Positions 9,859-62,200 are shown, numbered from the stretch's first letter. The stretch: DNA of 63,939 nt from Candidatus Taenariivivens baikalensis (GCA_009691445.1 SICL01000008.1:1-63939), one strand, 5' to 3'. The notes: generated by a model from the sequence alone, not told the origin. Translations and numbers: made by a program.

Positions 9859-10407
9859 TTATTGATAAAGTTCAGCATTCTTGAGGCGGGGATACTTCTG
9901 ATCTTTCTGCGAGAGGGTATAAGGGATTTTCAAATCCGGCCACGCGATCTTGAGATCAGGGTCATTCCATAAAACGCCGCGCTCGTGCTGAGGGGAATAA
10001 AGTTCGTTCACTTTATAGAGCACCTCGGTTCCGTCCTCCATCGTGCAGAAGCCGTGGGCAAACCCGGCTGGCACATAAAGCATTTTCTTATCTTGGGCAT
10101 TGAGCACGACACTGACCTGTTTTCCGAACGTGGGAGAACTTTTTCGGACATCCACCACCACGTCAAAAATTTCGCCGCGGACCACACGGATAAGTTTGGA
10201 TTGGGCCTTGGGAGGAAGCTGATAATGGAGCCCCCGGAGTACTCCCTTGGAGGAACAGCTGTGGTTATCCTGGATGAAACGTTCGGGAATCCCGTTTTGG
10301 TGAAAAAGGTCTTCGCGGTAACTTTCATAGAAAAATCCCCTCGGGTCGTCGAAAACTCGAGGTTCGATTAATATCACATCAGGAATTGATAGTCGTGTGA
10401 ATTTCAT
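9859..10407 (-). CDS. rfbC: dTDP-4-dehydrorhamnose 3,5-epimerase
   Basis: Contains RGFFYESY, RGLHYQ and YVPAGFAHGF; 182 aa. Confidence 0.93.
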   Translation of the reverse strand: MKFTRLSIPDVILIEPRVFDDPRGFFYESYREDLFHQNGIPERFIQDNHSCSSKGVLRGLHYQLPPKAQSKLIRVVRGEIFDVVVDVRKSSPTFGKQVSVVLNAQDKKMLYVPAGFAHGFCTMEDGTEVLYKVNELYSPQHERGVLWNDPDLKIAWPDLKIPYTLSQKDQKYPRLKNAELYQ

Positions 10408-37128: not shown

Positions 37129-37214
37129 GATTTCGGAATGGGAATTGCGGATTTCGGATTTTGGTATCCCTTCGGGATGATCTAATCCGCATTCCGCAAT
37201 CTGAAATCCGCAAT
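37129..37214. repeat. AATCCGC-word hairpin, copy A, immediately 3' of tRNA-Leu
   Basis: gatttcggaatgggaattgcggatttcggatt...aatccgc attccgc aatctga aatccgc aat. The 65-nt core at 37150-37214 is about 95 percent identical to 37307-37373. Confidence 0.8.
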
Positions 37215-37306: not shown

Positions 37307-37373
37307 GATTTCGGATTTTTGGTATCCCTTCGGGATAATCCTAATCCGCATTCCGCAATCTGAAATCCGCAAT
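37307..37373. repeat. AATCCGC-word hairpin, copy B, immediately 5' of tRNA-Leu
   Basis: gatttcggatttttggtatcccttcgggataatcctaatccgcattccgcaatctgaaatccgcaat. Confidence 0.8.
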
Positions 37374-37378
37374 AAAAC

Positions 37379-37422
37379 TGCGCCCTGTAGGGATCGAACC
37401 TACGACCCAGTGATTAAGAGTC
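37379..37422 (-). pseudogene. 3' fragment of tRNA-Lys, from the anticodon stem/loop to the 3' end; a perfect 44-nt copy of 37500-37543
   Basis: tgcgccctgtagggatcgaacctacgacccagtgattaagagtc is identical at both positions. There is no matching 5' half upstream. Confidence 0.85.
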
Positions 37423-37499
37423 CCCGCCCACCTGCCTCAGGTGGGACGGGTCCGTCCTTCCGCTTTGCGGAAGGCGGAACTTGCTTACCAAAAAATAGA

Positions 37500-37572
37500 T
37501 GCGCCCTGTAGGGATCGAACCTACGACCCAGTGATTAAGAGTCACTTGCTCTACCAACTGAGCTAAGGGCGC
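37500..37572 (-). tRNA. tRNA-Lys(CTT)
   Basis: Minus strand reads gcgccct-ta-gctcagttggtagagc-a-agtga-ctCTTaa-tcact-gggtc-gtagg-ttcgatc-cctac-agggcgc-a. Confidence 0.9.
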
Positions 37573-37807
37573 ACGAAACCAAATAGCGTCTGCCAGCTCC
37601 AGACTTCAAATATTTTTCCCGGTGCAGCGCTTCTTTTCTTGAAGCGAACCGTTCTGTATAAAACAAATCAAAAGGCCGATGCTTTCGCGTCCAAACATTA
37701 CAACCACGGTTGTGTTCCTCTAATCGCAGCTGGGGCGATTTGCGAGTAAACCCAACGTATCTCTTCCCATCCTTTTGACTTTTAAGGACATAAACATAAT
37801 ACGTCAT
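37535..37807 (-). CDS. GIY-YIG nuclease family protein (UPF0213-like); its 3' end overlaps tRNA-Lys by 38 nt
   Basis: MTYYVYVLKSQKDGKRYVGFTRKSPQLRLEEHNRG...REKYLKSGAGRRYL. The last roughly 13 codons and the stop lie inside the tRNA. The ATG at 37807 is preferred over the longer track ORF. Confidence 0.75.
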   Translation of the reverse strand: MTYYVYVLKSQKDGKRYVGFTRKSPQLRLEEHNRGCNVWTRKHRPFDLFYTERFASRKEALHREKYLKSGAGRRYLVSCALSSVGRASDS

Positions 37808-37964: not shown

Positions 37965-38936
37965 TTAGTTTTCCCTACCTGATGCTTTCTTTAGGAAATC
38001 AAGAAATTTAGGATGAACGGCTGATCCCATTTCTTCTACTTTATGCACATCTGCCCAAGCCTTATCATATTCTTTTGCTGCAAAATGGGCAACGCCGCGG
38101 TTCTCATAGGCCTCTGTGTAATTAGGGTTTATCTCAATGGCTTTGGTGTGGTCAGCAATGGCTTGTGCGAACTTGCCTTGCTTAGTATAAGCGAGACCAC
38201 GGCTGTAATAGAAATCTGCGTGGCCAGGATTTATTTCAATAGCCTTGTTATGATCAGCGATTGTTTGAGGAAGGTTGCCTTGTTTAAGAAAGGCAACGCC
38301 GCGATTATAGTAGGCATCTACGTAGTTAGGATTTATTTCGATAGCCTTATTATAGTCAACGATAGCTTGCATAAAGTTGCCTTGCGTAGCGTAATCAAAC
38401 CCACGGTTGTTATAGGCCACTGCATTGATAGGATTTATTTCAATGGCCTTGCCATAATCAGAAATTGCTTGAGAAAGGTTGCCCTGTTTATGAAAGATGA
38501 CGCCGCGGCTGTAATATGCATCACTATATTTAGGATTTAGTTCAATAGCCTTATTGTAGTCAACGATGGCTTGCGTGAGGCTACTTTGCTTAGAATAGGT
38601 AACGCCACGGTTGTAATAGACTTTTGCATCATTGGGTTTTATTGCGATGGCTTTAGCAAAGTCAGAGAGAGCTTGAGCGAAGTTACCCTGTTCGTCATGG
38701 ACAATCCCACGATTGTAATAAGCCTCTTCCAGGTTAGGCTTCATTTCAAGCGCCTTGGTAAAATCAGAAACGGCTTGAGCGAAGTTATGTTGTTTGGCTT
38801 CAACAACTCCGTGATTGAGATATTCTTCTGCGGTTTCAGCATAAACAAAAGAAACGCTTAAAAATAATACCCCTATTAAGGCACCCATTATTATTTTGGA
38901 ACTCTGAAATTTCATTTTTATCCTCTGAGGCTCCAT
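37965..38936 (-). CDS. Secreted tetratricopeptide-repeat protein (about 8 tandem TPRs)
   Basis: 34-aa periodicity with the pattern A..DY.KAIEINP....AY.NRG......GN..QA repeated throughout; N-terminal signal/TM. Confidence 0.88.
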   Translation of the reverse strand: MEPQRIKMKFQSSKIIMGALIGVLFLSVSFVYAETAEEYLNHGVVEAKQHNFAQAVSDFTKALEMKPNLEEAYYNRGIVHDEQGNFAQALSDFAKAIAIKPNDAKVYYNRGVTYSKQSSLTQAIVDYNKAIELNPKYSDAYYSRGVIFHKQGNLSQAISDYGKAIEINPINAVAYNNRGFDYATQGNFMQAIVDYNKAIEINPNYVDAYYNRGVAFLKQGNLPQTIADHNKAIEINPGHADFYYSRGLAYTKQGKFAQAIADHTKAIEINPNYTEAYENRGVAHFAAKEYDKAWADVHKVEEMGSAVHPKFLDFLKKASGREN

Positions 38937-39208
38937 CTAATTGAACTAAGAACACCTAAAAATTTAAAGTCCATGAATTCCACTCTAAGACAAAAATCCC
39001 TACAGTCGTGCTGTGATTCTTCAAAAAGTCGAGCGGTGCTGAATCGGACCCGCCCCGTCAGTGACGTATGCTGCGGAAAATAAGTAAAAAGTGCAAGAAA
39101 AACTAAAAGGCTCGCATCTTATGATCAGCGCTGAAGTGGTTCTATCGCGGTGTCACAGGTTAGGAACTCCTTGATAGTTCATAGGAGACGCTCTATTATG
39201 CGATCATT

Positions 39209-39961
39209 ATGAAATACGAAAATAAAATAAAAGAGATTGATGGGTTGAAAAAAGAGATCGACAAACATCGCCCTCTCTCACCCAAAGCGCTTGCACAATT
39301 ACAGGATTATTACCGGGTTGGGCTGACCTACTCCAGCAACGCACTTGAAGGTAACTCACTTACCGAGACCGAGACAAAGGTCGTGATCGAGGACGGCATC
39401 ACCATCGGCGGAAAGCCGCTTAAAGATCATTATGAAGCGATGGGTCACAGCGAAGCATTCACCCGCCTTTACCAACTCGCCAAAAAGAAAACGATCACAG
39501 AAAAAGACATCACCGGTCTGCATCATTTATTTTATTACAGGATAGATGAAGCCCGGGCCGGAAAATACCGGAAAGAGAAGGTCATTATCACGGGGTCCAG
39601 CTTTGTTCCACCGCCGCCTTCTGAGATCGCACGCCTGATGAAAAAATTCATGAACGCTCTCCCGAAACTCCGGAAAAAATATCATCCGGTCGAATTTGCA
39701 GCACGTCTGCATCAGGAACTGGTGACGATCCATCCCTTCACGGATGGCAACGGCAGGACAGCCAGACTCCTCATGAATCTCGCTCTTTTGCAAACGGGCT
39801 ATGCCATTACCATGATTCCGCCTGTCGTGCGGAGCGAGTACATCAATGCCCTCAAGAAGTCCCAGACCGGCACGAAGGATCATCAGCCCTTCATTAATTT
39901 CATTTCCAGTATGGTTTATGAATCCATGAAGGACTATAAGCGTCTCTTGAATGCTCTGTGA
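39209..39961 (+). CDS. Fic/DOC family protein
   Basis: HPFTDGNGRTARLL Fic motif; 250 aa. Confidence 0.92.
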   Translation: MKYENKIKEIDGLKKEIDKHRPLSPKALAQLQDYYRVGLTYSSNALEGNSLTETETKVVIEDGITIGGKPLKDHYEAMGHSEAFTRLYQLAKKKTITEKDITGLHHLFYYRIDEARAGKYRKEKVIITGSSFVPPPPSEIARLMKKFMNALPKLRKKYHPVEFAARLHQELVTIHPFTDGNGRTARLLMNLALLQTGYAITMIPPVVRSEYINALKKSQTGTKDHQPFINFISSMVYESMKDYKRLLNAL

Positions 39962-41579: not shown

Positions 41580-41653
41580 TGCGCCCGGTAGGACTTGAAC
41601 CTACAACCCTTTGCTCCGAAGGCAAATGCTCTATCCAATTGAGCTACGGGCGC
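41580..41653 (-). tRNA. tRNA-Arg(TCG)
   Basis: Minus strand reads gcgcccg-ta-gctcaattggatagagc-a-tttgc-ctTCGga-gcaaa-gggtt-gtagg-ttcaagt-cctac-cgggcgc-a. Confidence 0.88.
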
Positions 41654-41796: not shown

Positions 41797-41833
41797 AGAA
41801 GGCAGATGCTCTATCCAGTTGAGCTACAAGCGC
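41797..41833 (-). pseudogene. 5' fragment of a tRNA-Arg(TCT)-like gene, broken in the anticodon loop
   Basis: Minus strand reads gcgcttgtagctcaactggatagagcatctgcc-ttct, then unrelated hairpin-rich sequence. It differs at several bases from the adjacent tRNA-Arg(TCG). Confidence 0.7.
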
Positions 41834-41840
41834 ATAATTT

Positions 41841-42794
41841 TTATTTTTTATTTTCAAACACAAGCGCCAGAGCGCCGGTGTGGCCTTTTAACTTGGTGCG
41901 GACAATCTTGACCGCGCGGAATGCTTCGGGCCAGGCGTGAGCTCGAACACTCGTCATCATTTTTTTAAAAAACAAAGGAGGCGCGGAACTAAAAACGCCG
42001 CCGCCCAGAATGAGCTTTTCAGGATTCAAAATATTGAGAAGATTCGCCAGTCCGATTCCAAGATAATAGCCTCCCCGGGCATAAGCTTCAAGGGCCAAAA
42101 CATCTCCTGCTTTTGCCGCTTTTCCTAAAACGCGGGCTGTAAGAGTTTCTCCGGGTGAAAGTAAACCCGTGACCTTGGAATATTTTCCTTTTTTAATTTC
42201 GGCAGCGGCAAATTTGGCCATCGCCGTTCCGGAAGCGTAAGCTTCAAGGCAACCTTTGTTTCCGCAAAGACAAGGATCTCCTCCGGAAACAATGACCATG
42301 TGACCAGATTCCCCTGCTGAAAAACTCGCGCCCTCCAAAAGTTTCCCCCGAGAAAAAATTCCGGAACCAATTCCCGTACTTACCGTGAGATAAATGAAAT
42401 TTTGAAGGCCCTTCCCTTGTCCAAAAACATTTTCCGCCACAGCCACAGCCTTGGCATCATTCGCCATTCGAACCGGAAGATGAAACTTTGATTCTAGGAT
42501 TTTTTTGAGTGGAATTCCTTCCCAACCCGGCAGGTTAGGAGAATGAGGGACCGTCCCCTTAACAGGATCCACCGCTCCGGGAATACAAACGCCGATGCCT
42601 CGGAGTTTTGTTTTTTTTTGGCGGGCAATTTCGATAAATTTTGCCGTAACAACTTTGATTTGATCGACACTCGTTCCAGCTAACCTTCCGGTGTGAGTGG
42701 GGATTTCTAACGAGGCAATCTGTTTACCCGAAGGAAGTCCGAGACCAACAGCAATCTTGGTTCCACCGACATCAATACCAATAGCTGAATTCAT
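41841..42794 (-). CDS. ROK family sugar kinase (glucokinase-like)
   Basis: GIDVGGTKIAVGL and the zinc motif CLCGNKGCLEAYASG. Confidence 0.88.
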   Translation of the reverse strand: MNSAIGIDVGGTKIAVGLGLPSGKQIASLEIPTHTGRLAGTSVDQIKVVTAKFIEIARQKKTKLRGIGVCIPGAVDPVKGTVPHSPNLPGWEGIPLKKILESKFHLPVRMANDAKAVAVAENVFGQGKGLQNFIYLTVSTGIGSGIFSRGKLLEGASFSAGESGHMVIVSGGDPCLCGNKGCLEAYASGTAMAKFAAAEIKKGKYSKVTGLLSPGETLTARVLGKAAKAGDVLALEAYARGGYYLGIGLANLLNILNPEKLILGGGVFSSAPPLFFKKMMTSVRAHAWPEAFRAVKIVRTKLKGHTGALALVFENKK

Positions 42795-42821: not shown

Positions 42822-42894
42822 TGGGCAGGGAGGGAATTGAACCCCCGACACAGGGATTTTCAGTCCCTTGCTCTACCGACTGAGCTACCTGCCC
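42822..42894 (-). tRNA. tRNA-Phe(GAA)
   Basis: Minus strand reads gggcagg-ta-gctcagtcggtagagc-a-aggga-ctGAAaa-tccct-gtgtc-ggggg-ttcaatt-ccctc-cctgccc-a. Confidence 0.9.
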
Positions 42895-43499
42895 GGAATT
42901 TGCTTACTGATGCCCACCACAAATCGTCGGCGGGTCCGTCCAAAGATCTCGGCGATTTGTGGACGGGTCCGCCTCGCTCTTTGGCGGAAACGGAGTTAGG
43001 TCAAGCACTTCAACCTCGCTCGATTCCTCGTGGGGCAACTGTGCCCTCTTTGTGCCCCGGCTGGAGGCCACACGATACAAGTTGGAATGTAAAATGTCAA
43101 GAACCTCATGACATTTCTGGGGGCTTAAATACGAATACCGTTTGGGGAGGGTGAGTTTTTTGGGTGGAGGGCCCTCAGGCCCGGCATTGCTCGGCAAGGA
43201 AGCGCTTGAAAGACTTGGAGTTACAACAAGAGGTATTGAATCTACCTCTACCGCGGGGGATTATTCTTGCGTAGAGGGTTGGAAATTATGCAACTTGCTG
43301 GATACGCTGTTCAGACCGGTAGGACTGAATAATAGCTTCGATGACTTGACCATTTAGATTGGGCCGTGGTTAAACAGATTGTGTAAATTAATGCCGTGAG
43401 AAAACAAGACAGGGCCAAGATTCTTGAATCAAAGCAGCACGGCAGGAAGGTATTGGAAGAAGTGATAGATAGAGCGGGCCTGAAGTATTGTGATTTTTT

Positions 43500-46400
43500 C
43501 TAAACAGGAATTCCAGTCCAGTCATCAAAAATGTACTCTCGATGATTCTTCGATGAGGGCGGTTCTAAACTTACATTATTCCATGTGTGAATGATAGTGC
43601 CATTAGAACGTTGAGTTGCAGTTCCCTTTTCAATAAAAAAAACTTTCCCGTATGAGAGCACATAGTATTCTCTCTTATAAATAGCTCCGTAAGGATCATA
43701 AAAAAAACTGAAATAAGTAGTGACACGATTGTTTATTTCAAAGAAACGATCCAAACGATAGCTTCCATCTTGCGGAGAAAAAATGATTTTTCCAGAGAAA
43801 TCCGGGCCATCAGAAAAAATCAAGGGATGATCTATGAGCGTATCCGGTGAACCCGAAAACTCGATTTGAGTGTAACTGGAATTATAAATAAATAAATTCG
43901 TATCGGTCTTTTGACCTGAATTCAGGTCAAAATGTTCGAGGCTTGTTTTACGAGAAATAGGGTAGGGTGTCAGTGAAATATCTCTATTAAGCTGTTCTAT
44001 CAATTGATAGCTTATCTTTTCGGTGAGTTTACCTGATGATTGGTAGTGATAAAAATCGTACCGGATCATTTTACCTGAAGAATCGAAGTGTTCTGTTTTG
44101 ATTTTTAGTCCGGCTACAAAATAATCCTTCGATATTATAACCCCTTGTCCATCATAATGATCCAGTTTCGTCAGACTCTTATTTAATTCAGCCCCGTGCA
44201 AAATGCCAAAATTATTTTCAATGATTTGTTGTTCACCGGTGGCGATAGTTTCTATAGTCACAGTTGTGATAAGAAGGTCATCTGCAGTGTAAGTGAAATG
44301 ATAGCGAAGACTTCGAGACGTCCATTCCATCATGGTGATATTTTTATGTGCATCCATCTGAATGGGAATCTCCCCCACTTTTTGATACCCTTTATAGATA
44401 GGCATAGACAAGTCGCTTTGAGCCCCATTATGACTGGCAAGAATTTCCATCATAGAAAGCAAGGTCCTGAGGCCAATAAACTGACTTTGAGTTATTGCTT
44501 TTTGCAACCAACCATTAAATGCGGCCTCCGTATTAGCCATAAACTGTCTGCCACCAAACTCTGCCACGCTCTCAGTATAGAAACTATTTGCGTAGTCGGT
44601 AGGCCGATCCTCAGGATTGCCTAAACTAAAAAGCTGACTTTGAATTCCACCGAAAGTGGCAAAATTCTTCTGATAAAGATATTGAAATTCTCCCCAGGTA
44701 CGAACAATGGTCAAGATATGCCACATTTCATGATGAAAACGGTCTGCAGACATCGTGTCTATGCCATTATAAATAGTAATTGAACCTGGTCGACCAACCA
44801 CGGCTGTGCCTTCGCCACAACAGGAAGACGCCTCGACGATAATACCAAATTCGGATACCAGATCAGCCGGGTAGAGACTAAGGTAATTATAGATTTTATT
44901 TGCTTCTTCAGCCGTTACATTTCCAGAGCCAGAGGACCATAGCAATATTCCAAAATCATCAAATATTTCTCTGCGTTTATCATTCGCGGGCATTTTCAAT
45001 TCAGACATAACCGTTTGAACATCCTTGTCATTACGGGCAATTCCTCGAATCATAGTTATAAGAGAATAATAATTTTTAAACTTATCCGGATAAATCATGT
45101 CTGGCCGAGAAAAAATTCTATCGTAATGGAAATCATAATCAAAGAAATCGGCCCATTGCTTGACAATCCATGATCTTTCAGGCCCATTGTCAGGAAGCGT
45201 ATTCTTTAATCTCTGCAAAATAACATAAAGATCCTTAATATAGGCAGCGCCTAAGTATGGCGCCTCAATGCTACAAACAAAAGAGCAAAATTGATCCCAA
45301 TCATTCTCTTTAAGCACATTGAAAATATTTTGGGCCATTTTTTGCGGATCAACATTCACAAGGGCAGGATGAAATAAAAAAGAGGCATAAAGATCGGATA
45401 AATCATACGTTGTCTTTCTATCTCTGGAACCAGATTTCGGCAAGATGCTATAATAAGAGTCCCAATTTCGAAAAACAGGCGAAAGTAATTTGGCGAGAAC
45501 ACTCATTACTTCTTTCGAGTAATTCACTTTCCAACTTGCGCCTATTTGTTTTTTTTCCCATAAGTCGATATCATGATCCAAAGAAAGCAAAGTATCTTTT
45601 GCTGGTTTTTCGGGATGAATAACTAATTCTCGGAGGGTCTTCATAAATTGAGACTGCCCTGCTGGATCCGTCAGGTCATTAGCACCTACTACATCCGAAA
45701 ATTTAATTGTTTTTTCGGTTTTGGAATAAAGACCGATTGACATCAAACTGTTATGCTCTAGCGTAATGGTAAAATAACTATCTTCTGATGATAGAAAAGT
45801 AGGCGATAAAGTTCCTTGCATCTTTCTTCCATCAGAGAGGAGCACGTTAAAATTAGTCGCCACTGAGACTTTGCCTAGCAATGATTTCATTTCGGAAGAA
45901 TTGACCAATTGCATCCACTGTGCAGAACTCAATTCATAAACACGGCTATCGATCTTCTTTAAAACCTGTTCAATGCTTACTTTGCCCTGATCATCAATCA
46001 TGGTTTGACGGTCCACGCGGATCGTTTCAGAAGCCGTGGTGATGACAATTTCAGAATCAGTGTTTTGAATATTTCTGAGTTCATCGTGTGGAATGGGAAG
46101 TTTGGCTTTCGCACCACTTTCCCAGTTCACAAGATAAAGATAGGACGCAGATTCGGCTGCCGTTTGCTGGACAACTTCCGCCACGACCGTTTTTGCATCT
46201 TTGGAAACATAGACACGCGCGGCACTTTGCACTCCGGGCTTATTCGATAAACTTTCCGGATCCCAGGAAATAAGACTCTGGGCTTTGATGCCTTTTCCTG
46301 TTACCTGGTAAACCATGACATCGCGGGATGTGGTCTGGACATAAAAAACCTGACCTGCGGGACCTCCCGGAACAAAAACCGCATCTTCCGGAATACTGAT

Positions 46401-46769
46401 TTGCTGTTCAGGGGTACGTCTCAACACTGAGACTGTCGCAGGATCCACGACGATGGGTACATTCAAAGGTTTAGACGTAGTAGACTGCGCAGTGGTAATG
46501 GATTTTCTAACCGGTGATCTGGGAGGATCCAAGGATGAAGGTAAAGAACCGGGTAAGGATTCCAACGGTTTTTCTGCTGTCATCCGGCTTACTGCTTCTT
46601 CAACGGGCGTTGCAGGAATTTGACGATTAACCGGTGAATCTAAACTATCTGTAGGGTCGGCGTACAAAACCGGAGAGGACGGCATCCATCCAGAACATAA
46701 AAAAAGAACGGCCGTAAAAGCAGCTGTTTTTAATTTTAATTTTTTTGTGTTCATATAAGTGAAACTCAC
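43500..46769 (-). CDS. Large secreted protein with an HExxH (HEMWH) motif and YD-like C-terminal repeats; low-GC island cargo
   Basis: 1089 aa. Signal-like N-terminus KTAAFTAVLFLCSGWMPSSPVLYA, then DRFHHEMWHILTI. C-terminal stretches HYDGQGVIISKDYF and GKMIRYDFYHYQSSGKLTEKISY resemble YD repeats. Confidence 0.7.
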   Translation of the reverse strand: MSFTYMNTKKLKLKTAAFTAVLFLCSGWMPSSPVLYADPTDSLDSPVNRQIPATPVEEAVSRMTAEKPLESLPGSLPSSLDPPRSPVRKSITTAQSTTSKPLNVPIVVDPATVSVLRRTPEQQISIPEDAVFVPGGPAGQVFYVQTTSRDVMVYQVTGKGIKAQSLISWDPESLSNKPGVQSAARVYVSKDAKTVVAEVVQQTAAESASYLYLVNWESGAKAKLPIPHDELRNIQNTDSEIVITTASETIRVDRQTMIDDQGKVSIEQVLKKIDSRVYELSSAQWMQLVNSSEMKSLLGKVSVATNFNVLLSDGRKMQGTLSPTFLSSEDSYFTITLEHNSLMSIGLYSKTEKTIKFSDVVGANDLTDPAGQSQFMKTLRELVIHPEKPAKDTLLSLDHDIDLWEKKQIGASWKVNYSKEVMSVLAKLLSPVFRNWDSYYSILPKSGSRDRKTTYDLSDLYASFLFHPALVNVDPQKMAQNIFNVLKENDWDQFCSFVCSIEAPYLGAAYIKDLYVILQRLKNTLPDNGPERSWIVKQWADFFDYDFHYDRIFSRPDMIYPDKFKNYYSLITMIRGIARNDKDVQTVMSELKMPANDKRREIFDDFGILLWSSGSGNVTAEEANKIYNYLSLYPADLVSEFGIIVEASSCCGEGTAVVGRPGSITIYNGIDTMSADRFHHEMWHILTIVRTWGEFQYLYQKNFATFGGIQSQLFSLGNPEDRPTDYANSFYTESVAEFGGRQFMANTEAAFNGWLQKAITQSQFIGLRTLLSMMEILASHNGAQSDLSMPIYKGYQKVGEIPIQMDAHKNITMMEWTSRSLRYHFTYTADDLLITTVTIETIATGEQQIIENNFGILHGAELNKSLTKLDHYDGQGVIISKDYFVAGLKIKTEHFDSSGKMIRYDFYHYQSSGKLTEKISYQLIEQLNRDISLTPYPISRKTSLEHFDLNSGQKTDTNLFIYNSSYTQIEFSGSPDTLIDHPLIFSDGPDFSGKIIFSPQDGSYRLDRFFEINNRVTTYFSFFYDPYGAIYKREYYVLSYGKVFFIEKGTATQRSNGTIIHTWNNVSLEPPSSKNHREYIFDDWTGIPV

Positions 46770-47534
46770 CTTTGTGCCTGAAAAATAACCATAAGGAAGT
46801 GTAGCTCGATCACAGCGGTCTTACAAGGGTACGCACCAAAATTTTAAAATAAAGAATACACGGCTCGCAAAAATTACGCAGGAATGTTTTAAACCAGTTG
46901 CACGTGTTTGAACTTGATGGGAGTTGCTAGAATCCAATCGACCCAGGGTTCCTGAATTCGGGCTCAGACAAATTTTCTATATAGCAATCAATAGCAACTC
47001 TATTCTTTTTCGGACAAAATTTATACGTTTTCAATGAATCTAAGAATAAGAAGAGAGAGCTAAATCAGAACTTCCATTTTTCACGGCGCATTTGAAGGCT
47101 GATTAAATGTGGAACTTGCTTCTTAACAGGCGAGAACTTTTTCGAGGGTTTGCTCGATCTGAGATTCTCTATTTCGAAGATCAGCAGGAAATCTCTTATT
47201 CACTTCATTCATAACTTTCCGCATTTTTTTGACAAGAATATGAACGATTTCGATCTTATTTTTTCGGAAATTTAAAATTCGAAAACCAGTTGGCATATTG
47301 GTGAACATCCCGCCTTCCAAAAGCAAGACATCCTCCAATTCCCTGACGTAGGAAGGCTCGCCGGTCTTGTTCGAATGACCGGAAAAAAAGTGTGCCAGCC
47401 TTGTGCCCTTTTAGATACCAAAATCGACCATTCTGGACCAAACGGTCTTCATACAAAAATTTTCGCAACTCATTACTCACAAAAGAATTTGTAACACTGG
47501 TAAGAATTTAGGAGATTTTGTTCGGAGGGGGGCG

Positions 47535-47572
47535 CAGTCCCTTGCTCTACCGACTGAGCTACCTGCCCGGAA
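47535..47572 (-). pseudogene. 5' fragment of tRNA-Phe; a 38-nt perfect copy of 42861-42898 ending in the anticodon loop
   Basis: cagtcccttgctctaccgactgagctacctgcccggaa is identical at both positions. Confidence 0.85.
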
Positions 47573-47577
47573 AGATT

Positions 47578-47655
47578 ACGGATTGGGGATTTCGGATTGC
47601 GGAATGAGCGCGGTAAAATCCGCAATCAGCAACCCGCATTCTGAAGTCGGAATCA
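47578..47655. repeat. AATCCGC-word hairpin, third locus, adjoining the tRNA-Phe fragment
   Basis: Left arm acggatt ggggatt tcggatt gcggaat; right arm aatccgc aatcagc aacccgc attctga agtcgga. Confidence 0.7.
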
Positions 47656-47689
47656 TACTGGACAGGCTGAGGAGTGTCAAGAAGGGTCT

Positions 47690-48157
47690 CTAGCGTTTGG
47701 AGAAAAAAGCATCCAGAGTCCACGGATGTTTTTTGGCGAAAAATAGGCGGAGGCTGAGCAGGGCATTGGCGGAATCCATCATCAGCACCTGCTTACCGCT
47801 CAGATGAATCAGACTCCCCTCGCCGAAACATCCGCAGTCGGCAGGAAATTTTCCAGTTTTGAAAAAGTAAACTCCAAGAAGCGTCACAAAGCTCAAACAA
47901 AGTCCGGAAGTCACAAGCGCGCTGAAACGCGTCATATAACCGGTGAGGAGAAAAAAACCAAAAATAAGTTCCAGCCACGGAAGCACCGCCGCAATAACCG
48001 GAACAAAAAAATAAGGAATGACTTCGTACTGCGCAATCACACCGCGGAAATTTTCCAGAGGCGCCGTCACCTTGGTCCAGCCAGAATAAACAAAGACAAT
48101 GCCGATAAAAATCCGGACGATCAGCCAAAAACTTTCAAAATAGAATTTAGACTTCAT
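47690..48157 (-). CDS. MauE/DoxX family membrane protein
   Basis: Four TM helices and the PADCGCFGEG motif. Confidence 0.8.
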   Translation of the reverse strand: MKSKFYFESFWLIVRIFIGIVFVYSGWTKVTAPLENFRGVIAQYEVIPYFFVPVIAAVLPWLELIFGFFLLTGYMTRFSALVTSGLCLSFVTLLGVYFFKTGKFPADCGCFGEGSLIHLSGKQVLMMDSANALLSLRLFFAKKHPWTLDAFFSKR

Positions 48158-48162
48158 GGACT

Positions 48163-48903
48163 CTAATGGGAAGGTGTCCCCTGGGGTGAGGAGGCGTTTG
48201 CCGCGGGTGTTGAAGCTTGGGTCGGGGTTTGAACCGCTACCGGAGTCGAGGGAGCAAGAGCAGGAGCAGGAAGCGGAGGAAGACCCAAAAATTTGCGGAT
48301 CAATCCCTCCCCTTTTATTTTTAGCTCCACGGGACCCACAACCCGATCTCCATTGATAAAAAATGTTGGCGTGGATTCAACCTTAAGCCTGTCGCCGTGA
48401 TAACGATCTTCTTTCACCGCATCAGTGACGCTTTGATCCGTGAGACATGCGGCAAATTGATCAAGATTCAGATTAAGTCCCTTCGCGAATTCCAGAAATC
48501 TGTCCGTAGGATTCGCGGGAGTTGACCATTCCTTTTGCGTCTGAAAAATCTTATCGTGAAATTCCCAGAATTTTCCTTTGCGGTGGGCGCACTCGGCTGC
48601 CTGATGTGCCACGCTCGACCATAAGTGCATCGGAAGTGGAAAATGCCGGAACACAAGCCGAATATCTTTGGGATACTTGGCCATGAATTCTGTGAGAATT
48701 GGCTCAGCTGCCTGGCAGGAAGGACACTGAAAATCGCTGTAACCCACAATGACAACCTTAGCGCTCCCGAGCCCTTTTGACTTGAGCTGACCCGTGAAAT
48801 TGACTTCTGAAGCGGACTGAAGCCGGTGAGTTTTTTGATAGATAAACACGCTGCCGGCAATCCCGGCAAGAAGAATGACTCCCACGGCCCATTTTTGATT
48901 CAT
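48163..48903 (-). CDS. DsbA-family thioredoxin-fold protein, membrane anchored
   Basis: N-terminal TM and the FQCPSC CXXC motif; adjacent to the MauE/DoxX gene. Confidence 0.85.
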   Translation of the reverse strand: MNQKWAVGVILLAGIAGSVFIYQKTHRLQSASEVNFTGQLKSKGLGSAKVVIVGYSDFQCPSCQAAEPILTEFMAKYPKDIRLVFRHFPLPMHLWSSVAHQAAECAHRKGKFWEFHDKIFQTQKEWSTPANPTDRFLEFAKGLNLNLDQFAACLTDQSVTDAVKEDRYHGDRLKVESTPTFFINGDRVVGPVELKIKGEGLIRKFLGLPPLPAPALAPSTPVAVQTPTQASTPAANASSPQGTPSH

Positions 48904-49011: not shown

Positions 49012-50841
49012 TTAAATTCTATCGGTGGATTCCACAAGTTTTCGGATCGTGCGATTGACTTTCAGGGTCTTCATCTGTTCAAGCGAAAAGGAAATCCTTA
49101 AATGCCAATTTTTTAAATGAAGCGTCCCCGGCACATTAATTCGGTAGGCCGGATCATCCACCACCTGAAATTTCGGATCAACGCTCAACCAGTCCTGGAG
49201 AAGCTGGATTGAAAAAATAGAATTCGATTCCAGACTCTTTTCGAGCAGCGCCTGCTCCAAAAGCTTGGGGGAAATTTTATTCGTCCCGAGAAGCCGAAGA
49301 AATTGTTCCCTCTCATGAATCGTGGATTCATAAAGCAAAACCAGTTTAGGGATTTTGGAAGCTGCCTTTGAAACCATTCTTAAAAAACAGGACCGGTCTT
49401 TCAAAGCCTCTTTCCAGCGCAACCTTCCAGGAGCAGAGGCCCTCAGATCAAACAAGGATCCCCGAAGCGCCGCAAGGTTAACACCGTAAACCCGGCACCA
49501 GTGTTCAAACGTTTTCGCATTGACGGTTCCCGCTTCATCCTTCCACCAGGTGCGCAGCACACTGGTATCATGCGTCGAAATCCAGGAAACCGATAACGGT
49601 CGATAACTTTCAGGACTTCGAAACTCATAGCTAGTTTCCCAATCACGCGCCCATCGCTGAACCTCCATCCCTGGAATACCCAATTCCTCCATGACCCGGC
49701 GCGCGCAGTCCGGAACCGAGCCAAGATCTTCCGCGCACGGAAGCATTGAGGTACTCTTAAGCATTTGTCTCAGGAGTTTTCTCCCCTGCGCTTCCCATTT
49801 TGTTTCGTCTTCGGGATCAAAAAAACCAAAGAGTCCTTCATCCTGAGACGGCTGCTTATGAAAGATCGTCCAGACGCGAAAGACTCCCGCCAAATGATCC
49901 ACGCGGTAAAGATGGTAGAAATTTTCCGCATATTTCAGTTTGGCGTTTAGATAATCATAACGGCGGTCGGCCATTTTCTCCCAATGATAAGGCGGCATTC
50001 CCCAGCGCTGGCCTTTGGCAAAATCAAGATCCGGAGGAGATCCCGCCAGCAAATCGAGCTTGAAATAATCCTGATGCGCCCACACATAGTCGCTGTTACG
50101 AGCCGCAAGAAACGGCATATCGCCCACAATCAGAACGCCCCGCTTTCCCGCATATTTTTTGACGAAAGAAAGCTGTTCAAAAAGCTGCCACTGAAGCCAG
50201 CGGTAAAATTCCAGATCATGGGCATGCTGTTTGGCTAGCAGAGAGAGGATTTTGGCATCGCGCTTCCGGAATACTTCGGGCCAGGATTCCCAAGACTGTT
50301 GGGCGAAGCGTTCCTGAATCACCTTAAAAAGAACGTAATCCTCCAGCCAGAATTTATTTTTTCGGACAAACTGATAAAACGCAGCCGGAAGCCGCTCGTG
50401 GACGGATTCGTAAATTTCTCCCAATAAAAAAAGCTTAGCCTTCTTGATCCGGTCATCGAAGTAAGACTTCCGGCAAGGATGATTGAGGCGGAGTTCCCGA
50501 ATTTTTAACTGAAAGGGTTTTAAAGAAACACCTCGCAGTTCTTCCAGCGATAAATACATCGGATCCAGAGCAATCACGCTTTGCGCGTCATAAGGACGAA
50601 AATCATACCCGATCTCATTTAAGGGAAGAAGCTGAAGCAGTGTCAGACCCGTTTGTTTGCACCAGTCAATCATGAGTTGGAGATCCGGAATTTCTCCTAC
50701 CCCGATGCTTTTTTTGGAATGGAGCGCAAAAAGAGGCACGCAAACTCCGGCCCTTCTTTGAACGCCTGTTTTTTCCCAGTGCCTTCCAGCTTCAGTCTTA
50801 AGGAATACGGAGTAGGGATTTTTAGAAGATTTTTTTATCAT
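49012..50841 (-). CDS. malQ: 4-alpha-glucanotransferase (GH77)
   Basis: Contains GVCVPLFALHS, LLQLLPLNE, YRVDHLAGVFRVW and CAEDLG. Confidence 0.88.
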   Translation of the reverse strand: MIKKSSKNPYSVFLKTEAGRHWEKTGVQRRAGVCVPLFALHSKKSIGVGEIPDLQLMIDWCKQTGLTLLQLLPLNEIGYDFRPYDAQSVIALDPMYLSLEELRGVSLKPFQLKIRELRLNHPCRKSYFDDRIKKAKLFLLGEIYESVHERLPAAFYQFVRKNKFWLEDYVLFKVIQERFAQQSWESWPEVFRKRDAKILSLLAKQHAHDLEFYRWLQWQLFEQLSFVKKYAGKRGVLIVGDMPFLAARNSDYVWAHQDYFKLDLLAGSPPDLDFAKGQRWGMPPYHWEKMADRRYDYLNAKLKYAENFYHLYRVDHLAGVFRVWTIFHKQPSQDEGLFGFFDPEDETKWEAQGRKLLRQMLKSTSMLPCAEDLGSVPDCARRVMEELGIPGMEVQRWARDWETSYEFRSPESYRPLSVSWISTHDTSVLRTWWKDEAGTVNAKTFEHWCRVYGVNLAALRGSLFDLRASAPGRLRWKEALKDRSCFLRMVSKAASKIPKLVLLYESTIHEREQFLRLLGTNKISPKLLEQALLEKSLESNSIFSIQLLQDWLSVDPKFQVVDDPAYRINVPGTLHLKNWHLRISFSLEQMKTLKVNRTIRKLVESTDRI

Positions 50842-56255: not shown

Positions 56256-59200
56256 TTACGCAGCGGAGGAAGTCTGAAGGGTGGAGTTGAAGAGGGTTTG
56301 CAGAGTTTCGGCCAAGCCTTGAAGCGCGGGAGTATTCAGATACATTAAATTACCCATTTGCTGAAGCACGGGGCCGTATTGTTCTGTCAGTTTTTCTGCT
56401 TTCATTTCGCGCGAATACGCGGCCGTAATCCAGTGCCCTGCTCTCATAATCCTGGAACTTGGATAAGAGGGGCGAACCACCAGAGCTGCAGAAAGATTAA
56501 GACTCTGAAGAATCGTCTCGCGGCCGGTCACCACAAAATAACGGGAAAGATCAGGTTCATTGCCGGATGCTTTGTTCCATAATTTCATTTGTCCAAGCAC
56601 CTGGGCGGAAAGTTTTTGGATTTCGTGATTGATGTTCGCGGTTCTCAGAATCACGCGAATCGTAAAACGATTCTTGAGATTGATTTGATTTTGCGTGGCC
56701 CACTGGGCTTCCTGTCTCACGATTTCCACCGCACGCGCTTGAAGTTCTTTGAGTTTCGCAGAATCCGCCAGTACAACAATTGTTTTCCCTTGGTGCGCGC
56801 TCGCCCAAATCGCACGATTGGCTTGAATCTCTTCCGGTGAAGGCAGGGCATCTTCATAAATATCCGCCACCCAGCCGGGAGTATCCGAAACCAGATCCTT
56901 CTTCTGAAGACTCTGGATCCAGTCCGGCGTCTCGGATTTGTTCAAGGCCTGAACCTGATCCAGTAATGCTCGCTGGTTTTCGTATCCCGTAATCCGGACA
57001 TCAATAAACCTTCCCGCCACCTCCACCACCTGGATCACAGGAAACGCATTCTCCGCGTTTTTAAGCGAATCCAAATCAAAACCAAGCTTTGCCGTGAGCC
57101 TTACGTGGTTTGGATGAGCGGATGACCCGCGTCCTTGTGTGCCGGTTAACTCATCCCGCCTCATCTCGGAACGGGCGGCTTCAAAAGCAATCCGTTTTTC
57201 CGAAACTTCCGTGGCAAAATAATCACGATACTCGGTGTGTGTTTTTAAAGCGATGGCCAAGATGTCTCTTACCTGCGTCCATCGAGAAAGAATCACGCTC
57301 TTGCTCTCTAAAATTTCATGGAGGCTTGTTGCGTAAGCAAATAGGGTATCGAGATCGTCAACGTTCGTGATTCCTCCAGGATATTGGGTAAGATAGATCA
57401 CGGAACTCAAAAGCGTTTCTGGTTTACTCGATCGGTCTGCAGTTAAAAGATAAAGCGTTTCATCCATCGAAGAACCCTCAATAATTCCTTTCATGTAGCG
57501 CTTCAAATAATCCGCATTCTGCCAATTTCGTGTGCGCTCCTCCAAGTCTTGCTGCGCTTCCGTGCCTCTCACCTCGGAGCGAGTCATGGATTCAATTCTT
57601 CTGAGACTTTCAGCCAGCACGGTCGACATCGGCGCCTTGGAATCTTGATGAAGATCAAACTGCCATTGGCCAAGGCCTTGAATACTTTTGCTTACTTCCC
57701 GTTTTAAAGATTCGTACTGGGATAGCGCCAGAGGAATCGATTGATAAAATTCAGCAAAAATAAATTGAAGTCCTTTTTTCGCCTCTTCAATCGAGCCTGT
57801 ATTCACCGACACAGATCGCAAGGCTGGAAGCACCGTCTGAAGAATGCGGCCCGTTTCGTTCAACCGCAGTTGATGACCCAGATAGTTGTAACGACGTTTA
57901 ATCCCGCCCCGCTTCAAAGCAATTTGCTTGAGGCGTTCATCCAAAAATGATTTCACTTCATTCATCTGCTGACGAGCGCCCTCAAGCTGTCCGCTCTTGA
58001 TTTGCGCCAGTGCAAGATCGAGCGACGCACGCGCTTTTGTTTTCTGAGACGTCTTTCCCCACCGCATCCCGCCTTTAGAATTTTGAATCTGCTCCAGGTG
58101 ATAAACAATCTGGTCGCGGCGATAATCTGAAAGCGTGCTCTCTTTGGAACCCAGCATCTCTTCAATAAAATCGAGCGCATTGCGGTGAAATGCAACCGTA
58201 CCGTAATCTTCTTCCTGACTCACTAAAATATGAACTTGCTGCCTGACGGCCGTAGGTAAATCAGCCAGCTTCATTTCCTTCTGTCTCAGGACGTAACCGC
58301 GAATGCTGGCGTCTTTGACCCAAAAGTTTTGCTGGATCGTGACTTGTTTTTTCTCGCCAATTTGCGTCGGGGCCTTGACCTTGATCCGGAAAAGCGAATA
58401 GTCGTAAATTTTCTCAGTGACACCATCCAAACTGGTTACGGGAATTTTCTTCACGCCCGCTTCTTCAATTCTCCGCCGCCAGCTCCAGGCATATTCTTCC
58501 CCGAGCCGCTGATAGAGCTTCCCCGCTGAAACAAGAACAGCCAGAAGCTGATTCCGGGTGAAATCGCTTTTCTGAACTTTGTCCCCATTTTCAATCGCCG
58601 CCAGCATCTTCGAGGCTTTTAGCAGCTGGGCTTTTAAACGCGCCTTGATGAAAAATACCGTGCCTCGGTTTAAGAATTCCAACCGATCCGTGTTTTTCTC
58701 CAAATACGCCTTCTCGAGCTTGGGAATCAGCGCGTGATATTCTTTTTCATAATCAGCGGATTTTTTTTGCAACTCTTCTGCGGAAAGACCCTCTGAACTC
58801 TTGAAGGTCCTATTTTGCTTGGCTTGAATAGCCTCTGAGAGATTGGGATCGGACTTGATGAGTTGGGCAAACCGTTTGATCTGGGGAAGATATTCCTGCG
58901 TCACACTTTGATCAATCTTCGCTGCATCATCGTCGCTTAATTCACCGCTCGCCTTCTGTTGTTTTCGGTAAGTAAACGCGGTATTGATATCGCGATTCCA
59001 CCTGTGAAGCGTTGTCGAGCGTGCCCGTGCTGTTTCCATCCGTTTGAAATAAGCGCGGATCTGACTCTGAATTACCGCAGCCGCTGCACCCGGCGCTGTG
59101 CGAAGTTCCGAGCGAGTGGGTTTACTCTGAGAAACACGGCTGGACAAATTCCTGACTTCCGCGCGAGGCCTGGGATCTGCCCCCCGCAATTCGGGACGGA

Positions 59201-62200
59201 ACCGAACAATTTTGAGCGAATCTATGGGAGTCCTAAGCACATCACGAATCGATGTTCCGCTCTCTATTTTTCTCACCTCGGAACGGCTCCGCCGCCCAAG
59301 GGCTGCCAGCTGAGCTGCTCGAACCACTCTTAGCGTTTCCGCTAATTCCCTATCCCTCCCGTGAACCTGGTTCATTTCTGAAATTTTATCCCTTTCCTCT
59401 TTAATATTCCAAAGGAACTTCTGAATGATCATCGAGGTTTCTCCCGCTGATCGGGAACGCTTGTTATAACGTTTTAAAGATGCCTGAGCTTGTCTAAAAT
59501 AAGTTTCTGCCTTCCGATAGAAATCGAGTTTGTCCGTGTCACTCGGTGACTTTCTGGCCGCATATAAATAACGGGAGGCGATCGACTTTTGAACAAACCC
59601 TTCCCGGATTTGATATTTGTCATAAAACGGATTTGACTGGGGTAAATGCTGCAGGGCCTGTTCGTAGAAGGATAATGCTTTTTGATAAGAGTCAATCAGC
59701 CCATTTCTAATTAAATCAAGCAACGCTCCCGGAGCAGCGCTGCGAGAAACAGCATTAGCTTCTTTGAAATGGATTCTCCCCATCTCCCCCTCAATCATGC
59801 CCTGGGCTGCCCTTCCGGTTTCGGATTTCGAAAAAATATTTTGAGAGCGCATTAAATCCAAGGCCTGAGTTAAAAATTCTGGCTCTACGCTGGGAAAATT
59901 TGCTCTTTCTTCGAGTGAAACATGAGCCTCGAGTTTCGCGGCATGATCTTCTACTTGAGTAAGCTGGTCCGCCGGAATTTTGGATTTTGCAAGCAGATCC
60001 AGAACCTGAGTCACCGTCCCGGAAACAGTTCCTCCGATTTCTGAGACTTGAAAAGCTCTCAGCAAATCAATGGCCGCCTGAATATCCGCCCCCTTTCTCA
60101 CCTCGGAACGAACATGACGGGAAATAATGATCGTTTCCAGAGCCTTCGAGTGCGATCCTGCAGAACGAAGCAGCTTTTTTCCCTGGGGAAGCTGTATCAC
60201 AACATCTTTGCCATTTCCCCAGAGAAACACATTTTTCGCCCCGCGCTCAATGAGATCAGCAATCAAATCACGAAGTACAGCACCACGGTAATGTGTTTTT
60301 CCCGGAACGATGCCAGCAAGGATTTTTCCCTTGGTCGTGAAACCAAAAAAAGTGTGTGGATGAATGCCGGGAAGCAGTTTAATAACCATCTTTTTTTCTG
60401 CTTCACGAATGAAGTATTGGCCGGGCTTGAGGACATTACCGGATTTCGCATCAGCCAGTTTCTGATATTCCCAATTTTCGAAAACCCTGTCGCGCTCTTC
60501 GGGAGTGATCCCAAATGTATCCAGAGGACTTAAATCCAGTTCAATCGCTTCTCCGCGCAAAGATTTTTGAACCAGCTCATGATTACGGTAAATCTCGCCC
60601 TTTCGGTCACTCACTCCCAAATGAATCTGTTTGGTTCCCCGCTCAAACATGGGCAAACGAAAAAGATGGCGAAGATCATCAAATTGCTTCGCGACTTTAT
60701 TCAAATTGTCCCGTCCATTTTTAACAATGTGCTGGCCGTAAATGGCATATCTAATTTTTTTAGCAATATTTTTTCCCGATTCGTCAAAAACTCCTATTTT
60801 GCCTTTCTTGTTTTTGAACCAAAGTTTTTGGATGCTCATCGTGCCGTCGGTCCAAATCACCAGCATATCCCGCGGCTTTAAAGCATCTCTTTGATAATGG
60901 AATAGTTTTCCATCCACAACACCCGCAAACCAATCATTGAATCCAAGATTGCCGTTGGGAAGCACGGCAAGAATTTCCTCATCCGGATGAAGCCGCTTAT
61001 GCCGTTTTAAAAATTCTCTACGGCTGATTCTCACATTGGCAATCTGGGGCGATGCGAAATTGATAGACTCATGATCCCAGTAAATCTTATTATTCACGCG
61101 ATCAAAATGAATCCGTCCGACACCGTCACGAAAAGCTTCTTCGACAACCTGCAAACTAACGCGGACCTGATCCGATTTAAAAATCCTCACCACCGGTTTC
61201 TCGATTTTGAATTCTAATTCCGTCTCACGCTTCATCCTCATCTCCGAACGAATGGTCTCCGTGTTTACCGCCCAAGAATCTTTATCTGTCATCTTCGCCA
61301 TTTCTTTTAAATCAAACGGAACTTTCTGAACCCGGATTTCTGAGCGGGGTTTGCGTTGAAAAGGTCCGGAATCGCCACTGTCGCCATCTCTCGTCGAGCG
61401 GTTCATTTCCTTCCATAATTCATAAACCTCGGGGTCGTCGGTCGTAGAATTTTGAATGGTGGTTCGATTGATAAGCGCTTTCGGATCTTGACTGACACCC
61501 TCCTGGGCATAAATACTACTAGTGATCTTGGCAAGTGGACCCAAGTGCATCCAGGAAGCTGTAACAAGGGGCGCCATGCTTGCCGCACCCAGCGCAATGA
61601 TCGGACCTTTTGAAGCAAAGCCTTTATGATTGTTATAAGCTGGACCAAGAATCACAATGAGATCAGGATTCCTGTTCACAAAACGCTTTGCGAGCATCCC
61701 TGTCAAATTTTGATTGGCTAAAAGATAGCGAAAATGTTTCGGCGCTTTTGTCACTCCATGCTCCGTCAATGCCTGTTGAATGACAAACCACGCATTCGGT
61801 AAAATCGTTTCCAGCTTGCGAAGAGAAATGGGCACCAAAACTGATTCGGGTTTTGCGCTTTCAGAAGGCCTCTTCAAAACTTCATCTTGAAGTCCATTGA
61901 GTGTGTCTAATAATGCTCTTTGGATCTCTGCGCTGGCATCTTGAATCTTGCTGCCCGTATAAGTCGTTTTCGTGCTCAATCTTGCCTGATCTTCCGCCAC
62001 AATCTTATTTTGCGCATAAAGGAACCAACCCGGATTTGCTCCCTTCTCCAGATAAATTTCCGCATTCGATATAATACCGCCGCTTATCTGCTGGCTGCCG
62101 CTCAGCATAATCACGGGCCCATAGGAAATAACGCTGTCTTGATTTCGATAATTAGGTCCCAAAATAACAACCGTCGTAGGATCGGTGTTGATAATGCTGC

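Follow-up and report, generated by a model that had tools for sequence, protein, structure and literature searches.

A 4.6-kb island bracketed by a 38-nt repeat of the tRNA-Phe 5′ half in Candidatus Taenariivivens baikalensis

Layout of the tRNA-Phe locus

For analysis of a suspected island at the tRNA-Phe gene of Candidatus Taenariivivens baikalensis, a member of the uncultivated phylum Omnitrophota, the whole 63,939-bp contig was used (GCA_009691445.1, SICL01000008.1:1-63939; hereafter the window). It contains an intact tRNA-Phe(GAA) gene, the 5′ part of which is repeated further upstream, with 4,636 bp between the two repeat copies. This intervening DNA is probably a small element that carried the 5′ part of tRNA-Phe, entered by site-specific integration, and is now without its recombinase. 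All genes of the island lie on one strand (-). The features of the locus are as follows, where att denotes an attachment site, GC the guanine plus cytosine content, and ORF an open reading frame.

41841-42794 (-): gene for a ROK-family kinase; conserved flank on the right, with 28 nt to the 3′ end of tRNA-Phe
42822-42894 (-): intact tRNA-Phe(GAA), called by ARAGORN and matched to the Rfam tRNA family at 74.5 bits
42861-42898 (-): proximal 38-nt copy, att-like, inside the intact tRNA-Phe plus TTCC, its upstream side abutting island DNA
42899-43499 (-): tRNA-proximal non-coding end of the island, GC 49.4%, with no ORF that has a family match
43500-46769 (-): ORF of 1089 aa, GC 40.5%
46770-47128 (-): AT-rich intergenic DNA 5′ of the cargo gene; a weak promoter-like site lies at 46870-46841
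47129-47453 (-): decayed DUF2283/YuzE-like gene, recognized by homologue alignment
47535-47572 (-): distal 38-nt copy, the orphan 5′ half of tRNA-Phe on the native upstream flank
47574-47689 (-): native MauE-tRNA intergenic DNA directly outside the island, with a palindromic repeat and a near-consensus promoter
47690-48157 (-): gene for a membrane protein of the MauE/DoxX family; conserved flank on the left of the insertion site
48163-48903: DsbA-like gene
49012-50841: MalQ gene

A perfect repeat in register with tRNA-Phe

The window contains exactly two occurrences of the 38-mer CAGTCCCTTGCTCTACCGACTGAGCTACCTGCCCGGAA (42861-42898 and 47535-47572), which share one strand and show 0 mismatches; the number of 38-mer matches expected in the shuffled window was 0 (100 shuffles). 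Read in the tRNA sense, the repeat consists of four upstream nucleotides, TTCC, followed by tRNA nt 1-34, and ends at the anticodon base G34. Within the distal copy, nt 1-34 could be located at 47535-47568 (-) with 100% identity, after which CGCCCCCCTCC replaces the remainder of the anticodon loop. A perfect 38-nt direct repeat had been reported in the original prediction, and its coordinates and description were found to be correct by exact-match counting, ARAGORN, and Rfam. The crossover had also been placed in the anticodon loop; the edge of identity at G34 does fall in that loop, but this edge is the limit of identity between attP and attB and not necessarily the point of crossover.

Identity of the tRNA portion of the repeat says little on its own, since the window tRNA-Phe is 100% identical to that of Omnitrophota relatives (loci L002, L005, L006, and L008). 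The preceding TTCC is likewise common to both copies. At these upstream positions the tRNA-Phe genes of relatives have TACC, ACAT, TCGT, or ACAA, so that the tetranucleotide is not conserved, and by simple calculation its sharing would be a coincidence of ~1/256 were the two copies independent. This fits an att identity block that extends slightly beyond the end of the tRNA gene.

Because tRNA-Phe is identical across several Omnitrophota genera, as seen in those same four loci, the tRNA part of the repeat needs no att site brought by an element, and a route lacking site specificity was therefore weighed. DNA of another Omnitrophota bacterium, carrying its own tRNA-Phe, could have entered by, for example, homology-facilitated illegitimate recombination, with homologous exchange in the tRNA 3′ half or ROK and an illegitimate joint at nt 34/35 that left the 5′ half duplicated. 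Such a route would also agree with the absence of an integrase (see below). It requires, however, that the joint fell inside the tRNA and that the donor happened to share the non-conserved TTCC, and two other tRNAs on the contig have fragments bounded in the same way in the anticodon loop, as expected of a recurrent, site-directed process. We regard illegitimate entry as unlikely.

Gene order in relatives and the empty site

For comparison of the flanks, two distant Omnitrophota relatives were informative. The order in L001 is MalQ, DsbA-like, MauE/DoxX (ending at 9800), tRNA-Phe (9907-9978), and ROK (from 10001), and L004 has the same order; in both, MauE, tRNA-Phe, and ROK are contiguous with nothing between them. 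MauE and tRNA-Phe are separated by 107 nt in L001 and 71 nt in L004, where the window has 122 nt from the MauE stop to the orphan half, and the spacing from tRNA-Phe to ROK is 23 nt in L001 and 28 nt in the window. ROK directly after tRNA-Phe is also kept in L005, L006, L008, and L020. An empty tRNA-Phe site, for which the original prediction had suggested looking in related genomes, is thus present in L001 and L004, at about 50-56% protein identity.

The 4.6 kb is by this comparison an insertion into an ancestral tRNA-Phe gene, both flanks being in register with the uninterrupted gene. Given this register, the orphan half is the original chromosomal 5′ half, and the insert contributed the 5′ half that the working tRNA now has; in the intact tRNA-Phe, nt 35-73 are the original chromosomal part and nt 1-34 the island-borne copy. 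The flank outside the orphan half can also be recognized as native DNA, since a host palindromic repeat abuts the orphan half on that side. The contig carries this repeat of ~90 nt (GGATTTCRGATTGCGGAATG...) three times: one copy follows tRNA-Leu, another follows the tRNA-Lys fragment described below, and the third occupies 47574-47650. The 20-nt exact cores of the repeat lie at 37190-37209 (-), 37349-37368 (-), and 47587-47606 (+), 3 being observed where 0.06 are expected, and it may serve as a bidirectional terminator.

The best relatives of the window ROK protein are from Candidatus Omnitrophota metagenome-assembled genomes, at about 50-56% identity. Among 5.8 billion clustered proteins the best match was 67% identical and lies on a 1.3-kb contig, and no close relative suited to a fine-scale empty-site test was found in that collection.

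With respect to transcription, the DNA that separates the MauE stop from the orphan half holds a near-consensus promoter (TTGACA-17-TATGAT; 47680-47652, -). This promoter probably served the ancestral tRNA-Phe and is now directed into the orphan half and the island. As the native promoter remains with the orphan half, expression of the rebuilt tRNA would have to come from island DNA. It would proceed either from a promoter-like site (TTGACA-17-TATCGT; 43100-43072, -) that lies 178 nt upstream of this tRNA and could drive it, or by read-through of the cargo gene. With a 5′ fragment, then, a promoter for the reassembled tRNA has to arrive with the element, and the former promoter is left reading into the island; the need to supply transcription for the replaced 5′ part of the tRNA is a plausible reason for the rarity of this geometry.

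The space directly upstream of tRNA-Phe is filled by Phd/YefM-type antitoxin genes in L005 (8528-8875) and L008 (9125-9481). These belong to another clade, indicating that the 5′ side of tRNA-Phe is variable in several Omnitrophota lineages. In L020, an unannotated ORF of 3102 aa directly precedes tRNA-Phe. Giant proteins without annotation are common among these loci, and the window itself has a giant ORF of at least 2559 aa (56256-63935, -) that reaches the contig end.

Composition and contents of the island

The GC content of the island is 41.5%, compared with 47.3% for the rest of the contig (z = -5.4 against non-overlapping windows of the same length), and its tetranucleotide distance (z = 6.6) is the contig maximum; by both measures it departs from the contig more than any other 4.6-kb window. 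A low-GC island had been proposed from spot counts, and proper GC and tetranucleotide calculation likewise gives a non-uniform composition; the deviation is real yet moderate, at about six points. It is due to the large ORF and the distal spacer, not to the tRNA-proximal 600 bp. The 1089-aa gene has the lowest GC (0.405) and the lowest GC at third codon positions (GC3; 0.366, z = -3.0) among the 42 genes of the contig. The distal spacer (46770-47534) has a GC content of 39.5% and contains two overlapping small ORFs; it bears out the earlier description of long AT-rich non-coding stretches, whereas the tRNA-proximal stretch (42899-43499), at 49.4%, does not. GC-rich interleaved hairpins were noted at about 42917-42974, in the tRNA-proximal end.

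The cargo protein is 1089 aa long, or 1084 aa counted from ATG. Its N terminus is basic and hydrophobic and resembles a signal peptide (by eye; a helix spans residues 5-22 of the predicted model). No match to the protein was found in Pfam, NCBIfam, or PHROG, nor any homologue by a word-indexed search. An exhaustive HMMER search of 1.84 billion representatives returned only ten remote relatives, all of them large proteins, with a shared core of about residues 500-860. An HExxH motif (HE[MLF][WG]H) is kept in all relatives that cover the region, and H675, E676, H679, E728, and E732 are invariant or nearly so among them.

Only a weak match came from a PDB profile search, the target being a zinc metallohydrolase lipoprotein (E 0.047). 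AlphaFold predicted the complete protein poorly (pLDDT 48.9), and matches of that model in Foldseek were meaningless; a model of the core alone (pLDDT 73) had no significant fold match in PDB (best Foldseek E 0.24), its long weak matches being to the putative zinc metallopeptidase 4l7a and to anthrax lethal factor (1pwu), with TM about 0.3-0.36. On the basis of the HExxH motif, and not of family membership, the cargo protein is a putative secreted zincin-like metallopeptidase of a new, very small, and unannotated family. The finding flags this tiny family of large secreted HExxH proteins as mobile cargo. A paralogue, P0002 (823 aa, 39% identity, same HEMWH motif), is encoded on another contig of the same sample (L019, 855-3326), where its gene adjoins a CopG-like antitoxin gene and not a tRNA.

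The small ORFs of the distal spacer had been described as two broken-looking genes. Broken they are, but by homologue alignment they represent one decayed DUF2283-like gene, not two. The C-terminal 80 codons (47368-47129) are intact and 72.5% identical to Omnitrophota homologues of about 107 aa. There were 72 matches for the small gene, the best having E 5e-28 and 73% identity over the C-terminal 80 aa; some of the homologues are annotated DUF2283 or YuzE, one with PF10049, and this family of about 107 aa is abundant in Omnitrophota. The N-terminal ~27 codons are degenerate and include an in-frame TAA, so that the reading frame is not intact. A +1 frameshift was rejected as a reading of the small ORFs, because in the alignment they share one frame, which is interrupted by a nonsense codon and degenerate at the N terminus. 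A partner gene of ~122 aa precedes the DUF2283-like gene, or overlaps it by 4 nt, in L034 and L035; no trace of the partner could be found in the window. The distal end of the island has thus been hit by mutation and deletion. A tblastn search with the small ORF against phage and plasmid collections gave no match. Cargo with almost no relatives, together with a decayed small gene that lacks its partner, is typical of old accessory DNA.

These contents also bear on an origin without horizontal transfer, whereby tRNA-Phe or its 5′ half would have been tandemly duplicated in place and truncated, with native or gradually accreted DNA, in the form of a fast-evolving gene for a secreted protein, coming to lie between the copies. 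Host-like GC in the tRNA-proximal 600 bp, motifs that the island shares with a mini-insert at tRNA-Lys (see below), the cargo paralogue in the same sample, and the giant unannotated genes upstream of tRNA-Phe in L020 would all suit such an origin. Yet the orphan copy lies at the expected ancestral start of the tRNA and the intact tRNA at the expected 3′ end, the 38 nt are perfectly kept while everything 3′ of G34 is abruptly replaced, and the cargo gene is an outlier in both GC and GC3. Local duplication is quite unlikely on these grounds.

Assembly check

A mis-join of an empty-site chromosome with a separate 4.7-kb circle sharing the 38-mer could, in principle, mimic the observed arrangement. 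The Logan unitig L018 corresponds to window 42869-47564, its two ends each reaching exactly 30 nt into the repeat beyond the island, and a circle would give the same unitig. A k=31 unitig must, however, break in any 38-nt repeat, so that L018 is uninformative and no evidence of a circle. An independent assembly has two contigs (27.7 and 7.1 kb) that are continuous from MauE through the island to ROK and cross both junctions, as does the 63.9-kb window, which argues against a mis-join. We consider an artefact of this kind very improbable.

Partial copies of other tRNAs on the contig and in relatives

Each tRNA of the window was compared with the window itself, and partial copies of two further tRNAs were found. 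tRNA-Lys(CTT) (37498-37573, -) has a perfect 44-nt copy of nt 31-74 at 37379-37422, 75 nt downstream, which is a classical 3′-type att scar bounded in the anticodon loop, with almost no insert remaining. For tRNA-Arg(TCG) (41580-41653, -), a copy of nt 1-36 with four transitions lies at 41798-41833 (-), 144 nt upstream. This copy begins 8 nt past the ROK stop, and in L007 the tRNA itself begins 6 nt past ROK; it is a second, older 5′-type event on the contig, and its 144-nt insert terminates in a promoter-like AT-rich stretch. All three fragment boundaries on the contig therefore fall in the anticodon loop, two of the three being of 5′ type, which supports a recurrent, site-directed process in the lineage. 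Only 144 and 75 nt are left of the other inserts, in keeping with decay of inserts to stubs, and the Phe island could plausibly have lost an integrase in this way.

The 75-nt Lys insert and the tRNA-proximal end of the Phe island (42899-43499) have in common the exact GTAAGCAARTTCC (GTAAGCAAGTTCC) and a 30-nt GC-rich block (local score 31, shuffle maximum 23); the shared sequence is either element-derived or a host repeat. The tRNA-Lys/Leu cluster is adjoined by a gene for a TPR protein (37965-38936) with the second-lowest GC on the contig (GC 0.414, GC3 0.386), accompanied by GIY-YIG and Fic genes, and this stretch (37965-39961) may be another variable region.

To extend the count across the phylum, the window, L001-L009, L020, and L035 were taken as Omnitrophota loci. 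A same-strand partial copy lies near 16 of the 42 tRNA genes in these loci, compared with 3 of 79 in non-Omnitrophota control loci, and duplication of tRNA ends appears to be a trait of the Omnitrophota phylum. The copies in L005, L006, L007, L008, and L009 are tRNA 3′ ends from the T loop onward, 117-345 nt downstream of the gene. The intervening DNA of this clade ends in a conserved structured module of ~107 nt, which was found downstream of tRNA-Phe, Leu, Lys, Gly, and Arg and terminates in a perfect copy of the 3′ end of its tRNA, giving direct repeats of 17-108 nt. Its consensus structure has 41 pairs, 22 of them with compensatory changes; in the closing helix, an internal GGAnTTG pairs with the tRNA-derived CAAnTCC of the fragment and changes with tRNA identity. 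The module was located at the following positions.

L005: 9712-9819; 14807-14913 (-); 15110-15216 (-); 16005-16113
L006: 12187-12305; 12485-12591
L007: 943-1129
L008: 15185-15291; 15368-15461; 15777-15897
L009: 3538-3643

No Rfam family matched the module; it may represent an RNA gene, what remains of an att arm, or a mini-element that is mobile. A covariance model built from it found 12 copies in that clade and 0 copies in the window, L001-L004, and L020, so the module is not part of the Phe island. Two tandem units of another kind lie upstream of tRNA-Lys in L020 (16492-16776), with tRNA nt 1-19, a 47-nt GC-rich insert (CGGTCGAGCGAAGCGAGCCGTCC...), and TAGAGCA...; they look like pseudo-tRNAs whose D loop contains an insertion. 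Their GAGCGAAGCG motif is similar to motifs in the module of the other clade and, more loosely, to the hairpins at window 42917-42990.

Taken together, the Phe island, the Arg and Lys stubs, and the partial copies at about a third of the tRNA genes in the sampled Omnitrophota loci might reflect an undescribed, phylum-typical system that splits and rebuilds tRNA genes. The 4.6-kb island would be its first example with cargo, its movement relying on a factor in trans or on guidance by structure or RNA and not on a resident integrase. We find this doubtful. As an account of the island itself, it would make the 4.6 kb a cargo-bearing mini-insert of a small, integrase-less, tRNA-end-duplicating system common in Omnitrophota and possibly guided by structure or RNA. 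The 16 of 42 against 3 of 79 count speaks for such a system, as does the ~107-nt insert whose internal segment covaries with the T loop of each host tRNA (22 of 41 pairs compensatory) and the sequence shared by the Phe island end and the Lys mini-insert. The structured family is, however, absent from the window by the covariance model, and no mechanism or enzyme was identified. The break point is in the anticodon loop for the window fragments and in the T loop for those of the other clade; as these are the two classical integrase sublocations, ordinary integrase scars explain the fragments. The island is improbable as a product of such a system. The phylum-wide excess of partial copies is nevertheless a lead worth following and may be more interesting than the island, and together with the covarying mini-insert it could open a new question on the use of tRNA genes by mobile DNA in Omnitrophota.

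Origin of the island and search for a recombinase

Site-specific integration of a small element that carried the tRNA-Phe 5′ part and is now without a recombinase is the probable origin of the island, and each of the alternatives set out above is less likely. What is present today would be either a relic of an integrative genetic element or a non-autonomous version of one, with tRNA-Phe nt -4 to 34 in its attachment site, and entry into tRNA-Phe would have occurred by conservative site-specific recombination within the 38-bp identity block. On this reading, attB would have been CGTAATCT-TTCC-full-length tRNA-Phe, and attP GTAAGCAAA-TTCC-tRNA nt 1-34-CGCCCCCCTCC. The chromosome's own 5′ half would have been left stranded beside MauE (47535-47572), and the 5′ copy of the element joined to the chromosomal 3′ half, by which a functional tRNA (42822-42894) was rebuilt. 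The agent may have been a tyrosine-type integrase, later lost by deletion or acting in trans from elsewhere. The original prediction took the arrangement as the signature of site-specific integration at a tRNA; the layout of intact tRNA gene (tDNA), same-strand 5′ fragment upstream, and deviant DNA, together with the empty site, agrees with this, while the recombinase mechanism is one that we infer.

Several observations weigh against this origin. No relic of an integrase, excisionase, or recombinase was found in the island ORFs or by six-frame Pfam searches of the non-coding island DNA, nor was an integrase or recombinase domain found in the other large ORFs of the 64-kb contig; these family searches uphold, for both island and contig, the earlier remark that no integrase is visible. 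Searches with Pfam, PHROGs, and NCBIfam on all island ORFs gave no match, and Rfam on the island ends and the mini-inserts of relatives gave tRNAs only. Neither a related element, nor a phage or plasmid with an attP, nor a further orphan 5′ half of tRNA-Phe came out of viral, plasmid, and metagenome scans: an exact-pattern scan of IMG/VR for the tRNA-Phe 5′ half gave 0 matches, as did JGI metagenomes for tRNA-Phe nt 1-34 followed by a non-A base. The GC of the tRNA-proximal 600 bp is host-like, and low GC may be in part a trait of the gene family, since the paralogue P0002 is also low (43%, flanks 49%), making composition weaker as proof of foreign origin. Lastly, the nearest relatives are only about 50-67% identical in ROK, and at such a distance the empty-site comparison is deep and silent on the time or route by which the DNA arrived.

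A shorter orphan-half pattern was also run against the JGI metagenomes. Its 13 matches were all tRNA-Asn or uncalled tRNAs in tRNA arrays and were discarded as irrelevant.

Comparison with known systems

With zincins, such as the thermolysin-like gluzincins and anthrax lethal factor, the cargo family shares an invariant HExxH, downstream glutamates, and a helical core. It differs from the defined zincin peptidase families in that neither Pfam, NCBIfam, nor PHROG gives a match and structural comparison yields nothing significant. The small gene of the island shares its C-terminal 80 residues with two-gene, toxin-antitoxin-like DUF2283/YuzE modules; in contrast to these it has a degenerate N terminus and a stop, its partner is gone, and it is a pseudogene.

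For tRNA-integrated islands as a class, Islander provides the reference: of 3,919 islands in total, 3,760 have a 3′ tDNA fragment and 159 a 5′ fragment, and the anticodon-loop sublocation is the largest class, with 2,083 of the 3,919 (PMC4383910). A 5′ fragment upstream of the tDNA is accepted there as a valid configuration, and an integrase gene is a required filter (PMC4383910). Duplication of the 5′ half, which the original prediction had called unusual, is thus uncommon (159/3,919) but belongs to an accepted configuration (PMC4383910), and the layout is a documented minority, not a new kind.

Measured by the same rules, the island at tRNA-Phe has an intact tDNA with a same-strand cognate fragment, this fragment is a terminal 5′ one on the correct (upstream) side, and the length of 4,636 bp lies within 2-200 kb; no tyrosine integrase gene is found inside or overlapping it. 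It resembles Islander tyrosine-integrase islands of the 5′-fragment type at anticodon-centred 'A' sites in the arrangement of tDNA and fragment, in the end of the identity block, and in its deviant composition, and here too the element supplies the replaced part of the tRNA. It differs from them in having no integrase, in being very small (4.6 kb), and in carrying a single intact cargo gene. The missing integrase bars the island from being classed as an autonomous integrative element.

Remnants of integrative elements that keep their att flanks and lack an integrase have been described for Streptococcus ICESt1/ICESt3 as cis-mobilisable elements (CIMEs). Like these, the island is enclosed by two intact, att-like direct repeats and is devoid of genes for recombination or transfer, and by analogy it is plausibly deletion-derived and potentially mobilisable by an integrase in trans. 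The island differs from CIMEs in having no known co-resident parent element or cognate integrase. It is most likely a remnant or a trans-mobilised island and is best described as an att-flanked remnant or CIME-like non-autonomous element. As such the island is routine accessory DNA at a tRNA gene, and it is among the first precisely delimited islands in the uncultivated phylum Omnitrophota.

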